NCBI GenBank assembly: GCA_030592465.1
Contig: JAUVJB010000002.1
Span: 1-40,897 of the forward strand
Source: Bacteroidota bacterium
GTDB taxonomy: Bacteria; Bacteroidota; Bacteroidia; Bacteroidales; B39-G9
Direction: 5' to 3'
Length of the DNA stretch: 40,897 bases
Part shown: positions 6,224 through 40,897 of the stretch, piece after piece
How the letters are laid out: the number at the start of each line of letters is the position of its first letter
Numbering within the stretch: the first letter of the stretch is position 1
Position numbers and translations under genes: made by a program
Notes under the pieces: model-generated
Database searches by the model: none
What the model saw: the letters and a program-made list of their open reading frames with translations, nothing else
Told to the model about the DNA's origin: nothing

Positions 6224-6287
6224 TTGTTAGACACGAATTTCACGAATTAACACGAAAAATTAGTGAAAATTTGTGTAATTAGTGTCA
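6224..6287. repeat. cacgaatt-word repeat module (ttgttagacacgaatttcacgaattaacacgaaaaatt plus an inverted partner ending gtaattagtgtc)
   Basis: The 38-mer at 6224-6261 recurs at 12521-12558 with 2 mismatches. A 17-nt piece (ttagacacgaatttcac) recurs at 45-61. gacac at 6230-6234 pairs with gtgtc at 6283-6287 as an imperfect inverted repeat. Confidence 0.85.
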
Positions 6288-6293
6288 AAGATT

Positions 6294-6335
6294 GTAAAAT
6301 CTAAAATCTAAAATCTAAATTCTAAATTCTAAATT
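6294..6335. repeat. 7-bp tandem repeat x6 (gtaaaat ctaaaat ctaaaat ctaaatt ctaaatt ctaaatt)
   Basis: Direct reading. The last unit overlaps the ftsA stop codon (6334-6336). Confidence 0.9.
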
Positions 6336-8471: not shown

Positions 8472-8499
8472 GTAAAGACGCACGGCAGTGCGTCTCTAC
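8472..8499. repeat. GTAG-type REP-like hairpin (gtaaagacgcac ggca gtgcgtctctac)
   Basis: 12-bp stem with one mismatch. The agacgc...gcgtctctac core is the same as at 172-199. It reads GTAG-agacgc on the minus strand. Confidence 0.85.
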
Positions 8500-8507
8500 C
8501 ATAAACA

Positions 8508-9890
8508 TCAAACCTTTGTTTCTAAATATTCTTTAACGGGTTGAACCAACCTGTCGATGTCACCTGCACCAAGCGTTAATACAACCTGCAAATCTTGTTG
8601 TTTTAATACATCAATTAATTCACTTTTTGAACAAATAATTTTATTTTCAATGTTCACCTTATCAAAAATTATTTTTGAACTAACTCCTTTAATAGGGAAC
8701 TCGCGTGCCGGATAAATATCGAGCAAAATTAAACTATCGAGCAATTCTAAACTTTTTGCAAACTCTTTTGCAAAATCGCGAGTTCTTGAAAATAAATGAG
8801 GTTGAAAAATCCCTGTTATTTTCTTATCAGGGAACAACTCCCTCGTTGAAGAAATACTTGCTTTAAGCTCGTTCGGATGATGAGCATAGTCATCAATATA
8901 AATTAAATTATTTGTCTTAATAATATAATTAAAACGCCGTTTTACTCCTTTCGAAGTACTCAGCGATTTTCTAATATCGTTTTCGTCAACTCCGAGTAAA
9001 TAAGCAACAGCAAAAGCTGCTATTGAATTTTCAACATTAAACAAACCCGGCAAACCTATTTCAACATTTTTAACCACATTATCGGGAGTTACAATATCGA
9101 CAAAATAAATTCCATTATTAAGAGTAATATTAGTTGCATAAAAATCGGCTTTAGAATTTAAAGAATATGTAAACTTCTCAACACCTTTATTTAATTCGTA
9201 ATTAATATCAATACTTTTTTTAATTAACAGTTTACCATTTACTTTAATTTGCTGAATAAACTGTGCAAACGATTCCTCCAAATGGTGCTTGTTACCGTAA
9301 ATGTCGAGATGATCAGCATCAACAGAAGTTACTATACCAAAATAAGGATATAATTGAAGAAATGATTTATCAAACTCATCAGCTTCAACAACAATAAAAT
9401 CACTTTTGTTTGATAATAATAAATTGCTATTATAATTATTTGAGATACCACCCAAAAAAGCACTGCAGTCAAATTTCGATTGCTTAAGTATATGCGCAAT
9501 TAGAGTAGAGATAGTGGTTTTACCATGAGTGCCCGCAACAGCAATTCCTTGTTTATCGTTTGCTATAAGTCCAAGTATTTTTGAACGTTTATATATTTGA
9601 AAATTATTAATCTTAAAATAATTTAACTCAGAATGATTCTTGGGAATTGCAGGAGTATATATTATTAAAGCTTTATTAATATCAGTTGTGTATAATTCGG
9701 GTATATTTTGAATATTATCATTAAAATGAATATTAATACCTTCATTAATTAACTCATCGGTTAATGTTGTTGGCGTTTTGTCATAACCCGCCACATTCAT
9801 GTCTAACGACTTAAAATATCGTGCAATGGCGCTCATACCAATTCCGCCAATACCAATTAAATAAACATTATGTATTTTGTTAATATCCAT
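8508..9890 (-). CDS. murC: UDP-N-acetylmuramate--L-alanine ligase MurC
   Basis: N-terminal GIGGIGMSAIA, Mur ligase P-loop AGTHGKTT, and dcw synteny. Confidence 0.95.
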   Translation of the reverse strand: MDINKIHNVYLIGIGGIGMSAIARYFKSLDMNVAGYDKTPTTLTDELINEGINIHFNDNIQNIPELYTTDINKALIIYTPAIPKNHSELNYFKINNFQIYKRSKILGLIANDKQGIAVAGTHGKTTISTLIAHILKQSKFDCSAFLGGISNNYNSNLLLSNKSDFIVVEADEFDKSFLQLYPYFGIVTSVDADHLDIYGNKHHLEESFAQFIQQIKVNGKLLIKKSIDINYELNKGVEKFTYSLNSKADFYATNITLNNGIYFVDIVTPDNVVKNVEIGLPGLFNVENSIAAFAVAYLLGVDENDIRKSLSTSKGVKRRFNYIIKTNNLIYIDDYAHHPNELKASISSTRELFPDKKITGIFQPHLFSRTRDFAKEFAKSLELLDSLILLDIYPAREFPIKGVSSKIIFDKVNIENKIICSKSELIDVLKQQDLQVVLTLGAGDIDRLVQPVKEYLETKV

Positions 9891-9928: not shown

Positions 9929-10166
9929 GTAACCGTTTCCGGGTTTAAATTATTACACTAAAAATTGTTATATTGTTAAATTGCTAAATTGTTATAATTA
10001 AGATATAAAGGCAATTATTATAACCATTTAACCATTTAATACCGATGGTTCGGGATATAATTTAATATCATCCAATTATAAATACTTCTTTTCCATATAA
10101 ACAATTTAACAATTTAGCAATTTAACCATTTAGCTATCCGCCAGCTGGCGGACTGAGAACGGTTAC
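9929..10166. repeat. Mosaic palindromic element E1 (MITE/BIME-like) filling the murC-murG spacer
   Basis: It is bounded by gtaaccgtt (9929-9937) and aacggttac (10158-10166). It contains left module 9944-9970, internal inverted repeats 9972-9993 / 10100-10121, block 9997-10024, and right module 10132-10166 with hairpin tccgccagctggcgga (10137-10152). All of these modules recur elsewhere in the window. Confidence 0.85.
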
Positions 10167-10201: not shown

Positions 10202-11311
10202 TTATTCAATCATTTTTAAAATTTCGTTTGCAATTATTTCATCAGAATTTGTTACAGCTAATTTGGAAATATTTTCTGATAAGTTTTGCATTTTTTCTGT
10301 ATCATTAATTAAGTTTAACGCCTGATCAACAAGCACTTCTCTTGCTTGATTATCTTTAATTAATATTGCTGCATTTTTATTAACCAAAGCCATTGCATTT
10401 TTTGTTTGATGGTCTTCGGCAACATTAGGCGAAGGGATTAATATTACCGGTTTTTTCACTAAACATAGTTCTGAAATAGTTCCTGCACCGGCTCTCGAAA
10501 TAATAATATCGGCAACAGCATAAGCATAATCCATTCTTGTTATAAAATCATAAACTTTAATAGTTTTATTTTTATAATTATATCTTAATAATTCCATTTT
10601 TGCTTTTTCAAAAAATGTTTTTCCTGTTTGCCAGATAAGCTGAACATCACTTCTGATAAATTTATCTATATCATTACAAATACTTTGATTAATAGTGCGA
10701 GCACCGAGACTACCTCCTATTACCAAAATAATTTTTGACTTATCATTTAATTTAAAATATTTGGAAGCATCAGTTTTTTTATTTTTAATATCAAATAAAT
10801 CTTTACGAATAGGATTTCCCGTAAATATAATTTTTTCTTTTGGAAAAAATCTCTCCATATTCTGATATGCTACACATATTTTATTAACTCTTTTAGATAG
10901 TAACTTATTGGTTATGCCTGCATACGAATTTTGTTCCTGAATTAAAGCAGGTATTCCTTTTTTAGATGCAATGTAAAGCAAGGGTCCGCTCGCATAACCG
11001 CCAACACCAACTACAGCATCAGGTTTAAACGATTTAATAATTTTTCGTGATTTTAATATACTTATTAACAACTTAAAGAAAAAAGTAATGTTCTTAAAAG
11101 TTATTCGACGCTGAAACCCATTAATAGGAAGACCAATAATATTATAGCCTGCAGCAGGCACCTTTTCCATTTCCATTTTGCTTTTTGCTCCTACAAATAA
11201 AATCTCAATATTTTTATCGATTCTTTTGAGTGCATTAGCAATTGAAATGGCAGGGAAAATATGTCCCCCTGTACCGCCACCACTAATTATTATTTTTTTA
11301 CTCATCTTCAT
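10202..11311 (-). CDS. murG: Lipid II glycosyltransferase MurG
   Basis: GGGTGGHIFPAISIA motif and dcw synteny. The ORF-track start at 11314 is TTG; ATGs are at 11311 and 11305. The gene overlaps the ftsW stop (11298-11300). Confidence 0.95.
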   Translation of the reverse strand: MKMSKKIIISGGGTGGHIFPAISIANALKRIDKNIEILFVGAKSKMEMEKVPAAGYNIIGLPINGFQRRITFKNITFFFKLLISILKSRKIIKSFKPDAVVGVGGYASGPLLYIASKKGIPALIQEQNSYAGITNKLLSKRVNKICVAYQNMERFFPKEKIIFTGNPIRKDLFDIKNKKTDASKYFKLNDKSKIILVIGGSLGARTINQSICNDIDKFIRSDVQLIWQTGKTFFEKAKMELLRYNYKNKTIKVYDFITRMDYAYAVADIIISRAGAGTISELCLVKKPVILIPSPNVAEDHQTKNAMALVNKNAAILIKDNQAREVLVDQALNLINDTEKMQNLSENISKLAVTNSDEIIANEILKMIE

Positions 11312-12458
11312 CAATTAAAATTAAATCATCAGTTTCTTGCACTTTACGACTAACATTAATCACTATTCCCATTGCAATGCTTGTAAATATTATTGAAGTA
11401 CCCCCCATGCTTACAAACGGTAATGTTTGACCTGTTACCGGAAAAATATTAACAGCAACAGCCATATTTATCATAGCTTGAAAAACAATACTAAAAGTTA
11501 AGCCTATAACTAAAAATGCAGGAAAAGTTCTTTCACATTTTTTAACAATAACACCTGCACGATATAATAAAATCAGATATAATAATAAAATAAAAAAACC
11601 ACCGACAAAGCCATATTCTTCAATAATTATTGCATAAATAAAATCGGAATAAGGATGTGGTAAAAAATTACGTTGTGTACTATGTCCGGGACCTTTACCA
11701 AATACACCTCCGGTAACAATTGCTATTTTAGATTGATTAATTTGATAATTACCACTATCATCATCTTTATCAACATAATTTTCTATTCTTTTTTTCCATG
11801 TTCCTACTCTCCCATGATCAGGAGAATTAAGAACAACTAATACAAAAATTCCAAAAAATACTAGGCCAATACCAATTATCGCAAATAAATATTTTAAACT
11901 AACTCGCCCCACAAACATTAATATTAAAGAGGTTGCAAATAAAATAGCTGCTGTAGAAAAATTAGCAGGCAGAATTAAACCACACACAACTATAATAGGT
12001 AATACAATAGGTTTAAAAGCCTTTTTAAAATCTTTGATATGCTCTTGTTTGCTCGATAATAACCTTGCAATGTAAATTATTAGTGCAAATTTTGCTAAAT
12101 CGGAAGTTTGAAACGACAAACCTATGCCCGGTAAAGTTATCCAGCGTGAAGCCTGATTAAGACTTATTCCTTTAAATAAAGTAAAAATTAATAAAGGAAT
12201 AGTAATGTATAATAATAATTTTGATAATAAATAATAATATTTATATGAAATTGTATGAAAGATATAAGTAATTCCTAATCCTGCAATTAAAAAACTTGTA
12301 TGTCTTAAAAAATAATATGTTGTATTTCCTCCCATTTTTCGATAAGCAAGAGTGCCTGTTGAACTATAAACAGCTAACATAGAGAAGATACCTAATATAA
12401 AAATCACTATCCATATAACAGTATCACCTTTAAAATATTTAGAAAGCTTTTCTTTCAT
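11298..12458 (-). CDS. ftsW: SEDS-family peptidoglycan polymerase FtsW
   Basis: Polytopic membrane protein with the SEDS block LPHPYSDFIYAIIIEEYGFVGG. The gene lies between murD and murG. Confidence 0.9.
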   Translation of the reverse strand: MKEKLSKYFKGDTVIWIVIFILGIFSMLAVYSSTGTLAYRKMGGNTTYYFLRHTSFLIAGLGITYIFHTISYKYYYLLSKLLLYITIPLLIFTLFKGISLNQASRWITLPGIGLSFQTSDLAKFALIIYIARLLSSKQEHIKDFKKAFKPIVLPIIVVCGLILPANFSTAAILFATSLILMFVGRVSLKYLFAIIGIGLVFFGIFVLVVLNSPDHGRVGTWKKRIENYVDKDDDSGNYQINQSKIAIVTGGVFGKGPGHSTQRNFLPHPYSDFIYAIIIEEYGFVGGFFILLLYLILLYRAGVIVKKCERTFPAFLVIGLTFSIVFQAMINMAVAVNIFPVTGQTLPFVSMGGTSIIFTSIAMGIVINVSRKVQETDDLILIDEDE

Positions 12459-12475
12459 TTATTAATATTTAAATA

Positions 12476-12663
12476 ATCGTTCACACATTGCTTTAAATTA
12501 TTATATTAAAAATTGTTAAATTGTTAGACACTAATTTCACTAATTAACACGAAAAATTATTGTTAAATTGTTATTGTTAATATATAGTATTTGCAAGAAA
12601 ACTAAGTCATTTATTATTATTCGTCATTGCCTCTCCGCCAGCTGGCGGACTGTGAATGGTTAC
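12476..12663. repeat. Mosaic palindromic element E2 filling the ftsW-murD spacer
   Basis: The 28-mer cgttcacacattgctttaaattattata (12478-12505) is identical to 28623-28650. The cacgaatt-type 38-mer at 12521-12558 matches 6224-6261. The 22-mer at 12559-12580 is identical to 33673-33694. The 22-mer at 12582-12603 matches 33577-33598 with 1 mismatch. The right module tccgccagctggcggactgtgaatggttac is at 12634-12663. Confidence 0.9.
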
Positions 12664-15274: not shown

Positions 15275-15282
15275 AAAGTTTG

Positions 15283-15336
15283 ATGTTTAAAGTTTAATAT
15301 TTAAAGTTGCATTTTCCATTGTTAAATTGTTTAGTG
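15283..15336. repeat. Short AT-rich word modules in the mraY-murE spacer
   Basis: atgtttaaagtttaa (15283-15297) is identical to 36646-36660. attgttaaattgtt belongs to the ttgttaaattg word family seen at 9972, 12516, 12559 and 33673. Confidence 0.6.
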
Positions 15337-15348
15337 TTTCGGCATTTA

Positions 15349-19317: not shown

Positions 19318-19542
19318 AATTTTAACATATATTACCTGCCCCGCAATTTGCCCCGTAGCGAAGCGTACTGGGGCGAAGCGTATCGGGGTCATTAATTGTC
19401 AATAAACAACTAAATGACAACAAATGACCCCGTGAAATATTGCTTCGCCATTACGAAATATGCTTCGCATTTCATTTGGTAAACATTTCACAGGGCAAAC
19501 AAATCACATTACACAAAATATAACCACGCAAAGTATATAATT
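19318..19542. repeat. aatgaca/gcgaagc-family long imperfect palindrome (copy A) in the ftsL-rsmH spacer
   Basis: cggggtcatt (19384-19393) pairs perfectly with aatgaccccg (19423-19432). The flanking arms carry gcgaagc / gcttcgc words. The 17-mer ccccgtagcgaagcgta (19351-19367) equals 40632-40648. Positions 19394-19420 match 40800-40826. The right-end module matches 22157-22200 and 40711-40751. Confidence 0.85.
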
Positions 19543-22017: not shown

Positions 22018-22200
22018 ACGGTTATAATTTATAATTGTCATTAAATAGTTGAATTACGGCGAAGCCAAATGACTATAAATGACAGCAAAGCGTAATGACA
22101 ACAAATGACCCTGATGAAATAACCTGATAAATCAGGATTTCACGGGGTGAACGGGGCAAGCAAATCATATTACTCAAAATATAATCGTGTAGAGTATAAT
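22018..22200. repeat. aatgaca/gcgaagc-family element (copy B) between the two acyltransferase genes
   Basis: The 19-mer cgtaatgacaacaaatgac (22091-22109) is identical to 40645-40663. The right-end module caagcaaatcatattactcaaaatataatcgtgtagagtataat (22157-22200) matches 19497-19542 and 40711-40751. Confidence 0.85.
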
Positions 22201-23732: not shown

Positions 23733-23880
23733 AATCGCATGAGTCCACTGTGAAAACTATCCGCCAACTGGCGGATTAGCCGATTAGTGGTTTTGCAATA
23801 GACTGATATACAGGATTATAACCTCCAATCTTTCCGTCAGCTGACGGATTAACCGCTTTTCGGAGTGGATTCATCGCATT
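23733..23880. repeat. 148-bp nested palindromic element X (outer 24-bp stem enclosing two GC-rich hairpins)
   Basis: The outer arms 23733-23756 and 23857-23880 pair at 20 of 24 positions (18 Watson-Crick, 2 G-T). Hairpin atccgccaactggcggat is at 23759-23776. Perfect palindrome tccgtcagctgacgga is at 23833-23848 and is identical to 28766-28781. Confidence 0.85.
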
Positions 23881-28580: not shown

Positions 28581-28621
28581 TAGTCCTGATTTAAAAAATT
28601 TAATAATAAATATATTTGTAA

Positions 28622-28883
28622 GCGTTCACACATTGCTTTAAATTATTATACTAAAAATGGTTAAAACTTGTCCGACTGCCGGCGGATTGTTGAGCTTTAG
28701 CGAAATCCCAATCCATCGGGATTAAGATATAAGGGGAATTATTATAACAATCAGTCAAAAGTCAGTCCGTCAGCTGACGGATAAACTCTAACAAGTTTTA
28801 ACTATCTAACCCTGATACGCTCATACTTCGCTACAGGACAGACAATTCAGCTATCCGCCAGCTGGCGGACTGTGAACGGTTAC
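28622..28883. repeat. Mosaic palindromic element E3 containing nested element Y (28660-28802)
   Basis: Left module 28623-28663. Outer inverted repeat gttaaaacttg (28660-28670) / caagttttaac (28792-28802). Hairpins at 28671-28686 and 28766-28781. Small hairpin aatccc...gggatt at 28704-28723. Block 28721-28748 matches 9997-10024 at 26 of 28 positions. The right-module 35-mer 28849-28883 equals 10132-10166 with 1 mismatch. Confidence 0.9.
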
Positions 28884-28954
28884 TTATATTTTGAATAATT
28901 AAAAATAATAAAATTTAAATTAATAAAAAAATTAATTTAAATAGGGACTTTTTT

Positions 28955-33576: not shown

Positions 33577-33744
33577 ATATAGTATTTGTAAGAAAACTTT
33601 AAAAATCCCATAGAATCGGGATTATTGCAATACAGTTTATTTTATAAATTGAATATATTGCTAAATTGTTCTATTGTTAAATTGTTATTGTTAAGATTTA
33701 ATGACAATTATTATAACAATTTAACAATCCGCCAACCTGCAGAT
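33577..33744. repeat. Mosaic element E4 (partial) upstream of tatD
   Basis: 33577-33598 matches 12582-12603. Small hairpin aatccc...gggatt is at 33604-33623. The 22-mer at 33673-33694 is identical to 12559-12580. gacaattattataac (33703-33717) matches the E1/E3 block. A degenerate hairpin atccgccaacctgcagat is at 33727-33744. Confidence 0.8.
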
Positions 33745-36645: not shown

Positions 36646-36856
36646 ATGTTTAAAGTTTAAGGTTTAACGGCAATGTCGTTTAGTTAAGAACATATCAGAT
36701 TAGCACCATTCTTTAGGATGGTGGATTAAATCAGTTAATTGTTTTGGAAGTCGGCTTAAAGCCGACTTTTAAAGAATTGCTTTTGAATTCTTAGCACCAT
36801 CCGTTAGCTAACGGATGGTGCTAATCTGATTTTTAAAATTCATCCCTTAACTTAAA
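36646..36856. repeat. Highly structured aroB-aroA spacer with nested inverted repeats and a 34-bp perfect palindrome
   Basis: Perfect palindrome ttagcaccatccgttag|ctaacggatggtgctaa at 36791-36824. The 14-bp inverted repeat atcagattagcacc (36694-36707) pairs with ggtgctaatctgat (36817-36830). Degenerate hairpin at 36704-36723. Hairpin aagtcggc ttaaa gccgactt at 36748-36768. Outer inverted repeat gtttagttaag (36678-36688) / cttaacttaaa (36846-36856). Confidence 0.85.
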
Positions 36857-40585: not shown

Positions 40586-40897
40586 TTTAAAATATAGCCA
40601 TTAATAGTCATTGATAGTCATTAATTGCCAACCCCGTAGCGAAGCGTAATGACAACAAATGACGGCGAAGTCAAATGACGGTAAAGCCAAATGACAGCAA
40701 AGCTAAATGACAAATTATATTACGCAAAATATAACCTCTCAAAGTATAATTTTAACATATATTGCCATTAATAGTTATTGATAATCATTGATAGTCATAA
40801 ATTGTCAGTAAACAACTAAATGACAATCCCGAAGCTTCAGCGATTTTCTATTGACTATTGATTATTGTCTATTGCTCGCTAACACATTGGTTAATAG
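40586..40897. repeat. Two tandem aatgaca-family elements (C1 to about 40751; C2 from 40749, running off the window)
   Basis: 10-bp-phased tcattRatag words at 40594-40629 and 40759-40800. 16-17-bp tandem caaatgac-N8 x3.5 at 40656-40713. ccccgtagcgaagcgta at 40632-40648. Right-end module at 40711-40751. The C2 start ttttaacatatatt equals 19320-19333. 7-bp ctattga-type tandem at 40849-40876. Confidence 0.85.

Follow-up and report, generated by a model that had tools for sequence, protein, structure and literature searches.

The 238-bp unit E1, found in the murG-murC spacer of an uncultured Bacteroidales contig, probably descends from a small mobile cassette of the PF05635 type, as a MITE-like foldback form that has lost its gene, a reading to which we assign a probability of roughly 0.6. 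Three copies of the repeat family (E1 to E3), together with decayed ones, occur within 41 kb of DNA with ~30% GC, referred to here as the window, i.e. the whole stretch of 40,897 nucleotides that was analysed. The repeats are real and not a product of chance, and the family is larger than the three copies listed in a preliminary description of this DNA. The MurC protein of the window has its best named matches in uncultured Bacteroidales, and the dcw cell-division cluster extends from mraZ to ftsZ on the minus strand, between 20935 and 4667. The gene names given in the preliminary description are correct, with MurC encoded at 8508-9890 and MurG, as assigned by synteny and by Pfam hits in relatives, at 10202-11314.

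Genes encoding PF05635 "four helix bundle proteins" are very common and have an explanation only within diversity-generating retroelements and 23S rRNA intervening sequences; where the latter came from and how they move has been debated since about 1990. Here the cassette appears to be caught in three states: intact in relatives, as a miniature in an essential cell-division operon, and as a sibling with a target duplication. Together these states provide a concrete handle on how cassettes move and decay, and suggest that the spacers of operons can receive small cassettes of the PF05635 type, which there degenerate into MITE-like repeats.

Structure and insertion sites of the E elements

All coordinates and strings of the preliminary description were present in the sequence, with two of its mismatch counts requiring correction. 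E1 is bounded by inverse ends as proposed, with GTAACCGTT at 9929-9937 being the exact inverse of 10158-10166, and the 35-mer at its right end (10132-10166) recurs at 28849-28883 with the single mismatch reported (34/35). The related 30-mer at 12634-12663, for which one mismatch had also been claimed, differs from E3 at 1 of 30 positions and from E1 at 2 of 30. The copies of the left module lie where they had been placed, the three 27-mers differing pairwise at 2 of 27 positions, and the pairing of block B between E1 and E3 holds at the level claimed, with a third copy found in addition (Table 1). The contrast in composition also stands: a 24-nt hairpin region reaches 67% GC in a spacer of 26% GC.

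Table 1. Features of E1 and of its sibling elements, in coordinates of the window
Feature	Positions	Strand	Remarks
E1, 238-bp unit in the murG-murC spacer	9929-10166	-	Orientation follows the gene remnant and the dcw transcript
E1 terminal repeat adjoining the hairpin, GTAACCGTTCTCAG	10153-10166	-	One mismatch to GTAASCGTTCACA; pairs with 9929-9937
GC hairpin H, TCCGCCAGCTGGCGGA	10137-10152		6-bp stem, AGCT loop
5' array of 8-nt words, TAAATGGT TAAATTGC TAAATTGT TAAATTGT	10097-10136	-	Type found directly upstream of PF05635 genes
Putative PF05635 gene remnant, first 14 codons, MEKKYL*LDDIKLY	10055-10096	-	In-frame stop
hp2, second hairpin module, ATCCCGAACCATCGGTAT	10039-10056	-	Where the gene similarity ends
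Block B, ATTAAGATATAAAGGCAATTATTATAAC	9997-10024	+	26/28 to 28721-28748; third copy at 33690-33720
3' inverted array, TATAACAATTTAGCAATTTAACAATATAACAAT on the minus strand	9964-9996	-	Same array after the stop codon of intact PF05635 genes
Left module (9944-9965) and terminal repeat (9929-9943)	9929-9965	-	Homologous stretch after the intact gene in L149
E2, murD-ftsW spacer	12473-12663	-	Same two ends; 3'-type arrays only
E3, most intact sibling, 266 bp, between the exbD terminator and usp	28618-28883	-	13-nt terminal inverted repeats
E3 target-site duplication, left copy, ATATATTT	28610-28617		7/8 versus 28884-28891
E3 target-site duplication, right copy, TTATATTT	28884-28891		Flank comparison with the left copy
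E4, decayed mosaic copy	33605-33744	+	hp2, ATTG array, block B, short CAAT array, degenerate H (ATCCGCCAACCTGCAGAT)
E5, different foldback unit	23739-23874	+	Two H-type hairpins (23760, 23833), 11-nt inverted arms

On the minus strand E1 is arranged in the order terminus, H, ATTG-type array, ATGGAAAAGAAGTATTTATAATTGGATGATATTAAATTATAT, hp2, block B, CAAT-type array, left module and terminus, and the two arrays are inverted partners with 31-nt arms that are 87% complementary. The termini are common to E1, E2 and E3, while the interiors differ. The first bases of E3 are GTAAGCGTTCACA and its last are the inverse of GTAACCGTTCACA; these ends agree at 12/13 positions (chance probability 3.5e-5). 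The same terminal sequence bounds E1, where the repeat is 9/9, and the terminal repeats of E2 are degenerate. Both E2 and E3 begin with CGTTCACA, with the right end reading TGTGAACG in E3 and TGTGAATG in E2. The array of E2 is interrupted at 12527-12558 by a module beginning GACAC, and E3 contains three H-type hairpins (28671, 28766 and 28854) along with hp2 and block B, hp2-related copies being identified at 28705-28722 and 33605-33622 and in the relatives L007 and L136. With respect to MITE size, the three elements measure 238, 191 and 266 bp (E1, E2 and E3), and their sole trace of an open reading frame is the 14-codon remnant with its stop.

Allowing up to three mismatches, hairpin H (TCCGCCAGCTGGCGGA) occurs seven times in the window versus 0.01 expected. 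The additional copies lie at 23760, 23833, 28671 and 28766, with a decayed one at 33727-33744, and in two copies one stem pair has undergone a compensatory change from C-G to T-A. H is present in both orientations within a single unit (the three copies of E3), and its flanks read TA...CTG, with neither a GTAG nor a GTGG head.

Comparison with relatives identifies E1 as a lineage-specific insertion, since the murG-murC spacer spans 311 bp here versus only 6-9 bp in four relatives with 80-85% MurC identity (L008/L009, L010-L012 and L013). The murD-ftsW spacer is 213 bp here versus 69 bp in relatives, and E3 is absent from the exbD-usp spacer in L134/L135 and L138. The empty sites at murG-murC, murD-ftsW and exbD-usp support an inserted element over the ancient fixed spacer that the preliminary description had named as the outcome speaking against it. 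In L134/L135, whose Usp is 84% identical, both flanks can be aligned along the exbD-usp spacer with nothing between, and the flank AAATATA(A/T), present once in L134, occurs twice around E3, forming a duplication of 7-8 bp (7/8, or 7 perfect; chance 0.3-1.3%). The flanks of E3 and the once-only sequence in L134 are the signature of a staggered-cut insertion. E3 thus provides both the empty site (L134/L135) and the target duplication (7/8) that the preliminary description had proposed looking for; the 8-mers flanking E1 and E2, compared by eye, gave no convincing target duplication, with matches of 5/8 and 2/8.

Two further relatives illustrate the instability of these spacers. In L136, which is more distant, a different 90-nt insert occupies the exact insertion point of E3 (L136 3300-3541) and has one module in common with E3, ATCC...GG.ATTT.GCTAAAG.TCAAC. 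The history of the site may therefore be one of loss rather than gain: either an older element was precisely lost in L134, or the site may have been hit twice. Upstream of murC, L007 (a 94% relative) possesses a different filling, an array of CATTAAA/CTTTAAA heptamers, which points to a fast turnover in these spacers. The L007 contig ends inside this array, an example of repeats breaking assemblies, and cassettes of the type described below would account for some of the rapidly evolving "junk" between genes in uncultured Bacteroidales.

Relationship to PF05635 cassettes

Contrary to the preliminary description, which recognised no described family, our comparisons point to a PF05635 four-helix-bundle cassette as the source of the E1 core. 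In blastn searches of the elements against the loci of relatives, matches were obtained to the flanks of a small gene between murE and mraY, which encodes a 106-125-aa PF05635 ("23S_rRNA_IVP") four-helix-bundle protein. In the cassette, a gene for a 125-aa PF05635 protein stands between an upstream array of ATTG-type 8-nt words and a CAAT array in inverted form, followed by an AT-rich module and a short terminal motif. More specifically, the gene is preceded by TTAAATTGTTAAATTGTTAAATTGTTG and followed by the inverted TTAACAATTTAGCAATATAACAAT, and in four other genomes the inverted arrays are 26-46 nt long and 85-88% complementary. Array-flanked PF05635 genes were identified in L010, L011 and L013 (murE-mraY spacer), in L144-147 (labelled CPR) and in L140-143, and the same architecture also surrounds homologous genes in L148 and L149; the open reading frame is intact in the related cassettes of L010, L013, L140, L144, L148 and L149. 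The cassette of L144, whose protein is labelled Candidatus Pacebacteria, is located between PrgI and TraC-like genes.

Read on the minus strand, the array and start region of E1 display 78% column identity with four cassettes, and the array with the remnant matches the intact cassette of L149 at 73/81 nt (90% DNA identity, the 5' array likewise being 90% identical). The peptide MEKKYL*LDDIKLY agrees at 11 of 14 positions with family N-termini such as MEKKYLKLNDIKVY. Within the whole window the remnant is the top tblastn match for the cassette protein (E = 0.18, weak alone) and the top-ranked tile for the PF05635 family profile (HMM; E = 2.3, also weak alone); combined with position, orientation and the DNA match, these hits make what we regard as a convincing case for descent from the cassette.

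The L149 locus also informs on the ends of the family. After its intact gene and 3' array comes a stretch homologous to the left module and then the terminus GTGAACGCTTA, and therefore the left end of the E family appears to belong to the gene-bearing cassette. Upstream of the same gene neither hairpin H nor a second terminus is present, and thus the inverted terminus of E1-E3 may be a later acquisition. None of the loci examined yielded a complete copy in which two terminal repeats enclose an intact gene.

Homologues of the cassette protein number in the thousands; the best 120 are 70-81% identical to the L013 protein and carry source labels of Bacteroidota, Bacteroidales, Pacebacteria, Andersenbacteria, Parcubacteria, Patescibacteria and Minisyncoccia. 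Many of these 120 derive from very short contigs. The labels and short contigs fit horizontal spread and assembly breaks induced by repeats, and mis-binning of metagenome-assembled genomes is also possible. For a 125-aa protein, identity at this level between Bacteroidota- and CPR-labelled contigs in the best 120 homologues is unusually high across phyla.

In the window itself, the murE-mraY spacer (15275-15348) holds a short CAAT-type array (AAACAATTTAACAATGG) at the place where L010, L011 and L013 have an intact PF05635 gene. From an alignment that is weak, the gene seems to have been lost from this spacer. PF05635 cassettes in operon spacers were not found described in the literature, and we know of no description of the cassette outside rRNA or of its miniature derivatives.

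Proposed origin, rival explanations and described systems

Copies of the family would spread by transposition-like, staggered-cut insertion with the enzyme supplied in trans. Their later divergence would reflect array slippage, nested insertion of hairpins and deletions of internal sequence. Of the cassette, E1 would have kept the two arrays, the AT-rich module, the terminal motif and 14 initial codons that now contain a stop, and would have gained an inverted copy of the terminus beside the GC hairpin, yielding terminal inverted repeats; E2 retains 3'-type arrays alone and E3 nothing of the cassette interior. E1 would be co-transcribed within the dcw mRNA, where its arms may form a long double-stranded stem. 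The predicted fold of the E1 minus-strand RNA has an energy of -61.5 kcal/mol (z = -4.8 versus shuffles), with z = -5.8 for E3 and an ordinary z = -0.7 for E2; E1 and E3 fold end to end, E1 through its 31-nt arms (87%) and a 9-nt terminal stem. RNase III probably cuts this stem, by analogy with 23S rRNA intervening sequences. The E elements are most likely selfish DNA without a dedicated host function.

More tentatively, array-bracketed PF05635 cassettes could constitute a distinct class of small mobile DNA, present in Bacteroidota and CPR at 70-80% protein identity and in both operon spacers and rRNA. Such cassettes would lack a classical transposase of their own, perhaps with their pentameric protein binding its own flanking arrays, and would spawn gene-less miniatures acting as mRNA "intervening sequences" that RNase III either excises or cleaves. 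We offer this as a rather unlikely speculation.

It is unlikely that the family arose as an ordinary MITE from an IS66-family insertion sequence that also mobilised it, with the four-helix-bundle remnant as passenger or nested DNA. Known IS66 elements occur in Bacteroidetes and have inverted repeats of 20-30 bp starting with GTAAGCG and direct repeats of 8 bp (PMC11946415), and the left end of E3 does start with GTAAGCG and is flanked by an 8-bp repeat at 7/8. However, the inverted repeat here spans 13 nt, and GTAAGCG is found at one end of E3 only, the other termini being GTAACCG or ATAATCG. Furthermore, the window contains no IS66 genes (no tnpA/B/C genes were seen), and the terminus of the E family was seen in none of 147 loci searched. 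In L149, outside that set, the intact PF05635 gene is followed by the same terminus, an observation linking the end to the cassette and arguing against an IS66 origin. In the start of its inverted repeats and its 8-bp duplications, IS66 nevertheless provides a lead toward the mobilising enzyme, with the reservation that the repeat here is 13 nt long and a partner was not found.

It is improbable that the unit is a host cis-regulatory RNA, acting as terminator, attenuator, processing site or carrier of a promoter and selected because it uncouples the genes murG and murC. Such an RNA would account for the shared orientation of the three copies with respect to transcription, in which the next start codon lies 14-38 nt downstream of the AT-rich end, and for the strong predicted structure of E1 and E3. 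Against it, the elements are absent from relatives with otherwise colinear dcw genes, and their interiors differ among the three copies. The Rfam search for a described family that the preliminary description had suggested returned no match at the gathering score and none on the elements even at E<=5. As for a terminator role, the H copies of E1 and E2 lack a downstream T run and were not called as terminators, and the true exbD terminator lies outside E3. No Bacteroidetes-type promoter motif was detected on the transcribed strand and sigma-70-like matches were not above shuffles, and promoter delivery by E1 was rejected on these grounds.

Very improbable, too, is a palindromic element of the REP/BIME type that owes its spread to a REP-associated tyrosine transposase (RAYT). 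GC palindromes do occur here in AT-rich spacers, within mosaics and in both orientations in one unit (28671, 28766 and 28854), and a separate GTAG...CTAC hairpin is present at 172-199 and 8472-8499. Yet H has no GTAG or GTGG head, the window holds no RAYT gene (and no transposase genes at all), and E3 has a target duplication and terminal inverted repeats. IS200/IS605-type chemistry is not known to make target duplications or terminal inverted repeats. Of the "MITE/BIME-like mosaic" originally proposed, the inserted, MITE-like mosaic of shared modules is therefore retained and the BIME/REP component set aside on these three points. Finally, the reading as chance similarity or old fixed spacer DNA is refuted: AT-rich low-complexity DNA yields many weak repeats, and the 9-nt inverted repeat of E1 alone is expected in 18% of shuffles, but seven hairpins, a 35-mer conserved at 34/35 and empty sites in relatives stand against it.

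The closest described system to E1, read as a decayed PF05635 cassette, is the 23S rRNA intervening sequence. Intervening sequences are excised by RNase III and contain a decaying ORF (PMC4990558), 23S_rRNA_IVP (PF05635) ORFs occur in rRNA insertions of CPR (PMC11270868), and PF05635 is related to the Avd protein of diversity-generating retroelements (PMC10053308). The intervening sequences of Coxiella, Leptospira and Salmonella (PMC4990558) resemble the E family in several respects: inverted repeats at the ends form a long stem enclosing the insert, a variable number of short tandem repeats sits immediately before the ORF start, and the distribution is sporadic, consistent with horizontal spread. 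Their decaying PF05635 (S23p) ORF has a putative counterpart in E1, which appears to retain a 14-codon remnant only. Unlike intervening sequences, the E elements are found in spacers of protein-coding genes (dcw, exbD-usp) and not in helix 25/45 of 23S rRNA, and possess a GC hairpin, short terminal repeats and a target duplication, with RNase III cutting proposed by analogy.

The Correia/NEMIS MITEs of Neisseria resemble the E elements in being non-coding, intergenic, co-transcribed foldback units of 100-300 bp with terminal inverted repeats and target duplication, and RNase III cleaves Correia stems in mRNA. The interiors of the E elements are mosaic rather than uniform, and the gene of the putative source cassette is not a transposase. 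No transposase-bearing partner with the same termini was found in the window or in 147 loci, the gene-bearing relative in L149 encoding PF05635. The BIME/REP sequences of E. coli also combine palindromic units with linker motifs into mosaics located between the genes of operons, the E family differing, in addition to the points above, in its 16-22 nt hairpin set in AT-rich arrays. Pneumococcal BOX elements (boxA-boxB(n)-boxC) share with the E elements a modular design of conserved end modules and a variable number of internal repeats; no sequence relation between the two is known, and the E elements carry a putative gene remnant. Cyanobacterial STRR heptamer arrays, reportedly described with small dispersed hairpin repeats by Elhai et al. 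in 2008, also combine tandem arrays of 7-8-nt words in spacers with small hairpin repeats in varied contexts, but belong to another phylum and have other sequences, and H is not enriched near tandem arrays outside the window.

Hairpin H in other genomes and further repeats of the window

Searches with H as a 19-23-mer identified six stretches of representative genomes (five contigs), from Saccharibacteria, Moranbacteria, another Patescibacteria, Imperialibacter and Flavobacteriales, and more than 120 metagenome loci. About 39% of the outside loci lie in open frames of at least 150 codons, e.g. in the RQLADW motif of CoA-transferases; only ~10% have extended stems, and a few cap longer stems or resemble bidirectional terminators. 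The flanks of H in the window are common to none of the outside loci, a profile search detected no PF05635 gene next to H in these loci, and no enrichment near 7-9-nt tandem arrays was observed in 126 of them. Viral contigs gave 0 matches to the hairpin, the hairpin string was not found in the literature, and the more specific end module CTGGCGGACTGNGAAYGGTTAC had 0 matches in JGI metagenomes and none in any fetched locus. H as a cross-phylum mobile hairpin tied to heptamer arrays was considered and rejected in view of the mixed contexts, the lack of array enrichment and the differing flanks, and occurrences outside the window were not counted as copies of its family.

Several outside copies of H adjoin or lie between tRNA genes (L014 3609, L119 7853, L087 6515 and L018 8283). 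A recurrent family of ~90 nt around the hairpin, GATGCGGAGAACCAATGTTTGATTAACC-H-CGGAACACTGAACCGCCAC, was also identified on several low-GC contigs (L005 47-69, L052 9818 and 11953, L077, L110, and L112 75 and 837), twice per contig in two of them. Within the window, E5 sits in a convergent spacer, with arms ATGAGTCCACT / AGTGGATTCAT and its two H-type hairpins in direct orientation.

The two GTAG...CTAC GC hairpins (GTAGAGACGCAATGCATTGCGTCTCTAC and GTAAAGACGCACGGCAGTGCGTCTCTAC) have a REP-like look, and the second fills the murC-ftsQ spacer, which is 67 bp here; in L007 that spacer is 189 bp with other hairpins. A second repeat family occurs at 19403-19537, 22058-22198 and 40592-40807, comprising AAATGAC-containing words, ATTAATAGTCATTGATAGTCA arrays and a common 39-nt block. 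Within it, a weak tblastn match (40700-40759) to the N-terminal part of PF05635 suggests that a further cassette subfamily has left remnants here. The module GACAC(G/T)AATTTCAC(G/T)AATTAACACGAAAAATT is found at 48-61, 6230-6261 and 12527-12558; in E2 it lies between two ATTGTTAAATTGTTA copies, as if nested in the array, and its copy in the ftsA-ftsZ spacer belongs to a small foldback. Upstream of ftsZ, a TCTAAAA/TCTAAAT heptamer array (6296-6333) is patterned differently from that at the same place in L007 (3817-3869), which indicates rapid slippage. Lastly, a long, GC-richer inverted repeat (TTAGCACCAT...GGATGGTG and TTAGCACCATCCGTTAGCTAACGGATGGTGCTAA) lies at 36700-36824, between the genes for dehydroquinate synthase and EPSP synthase.
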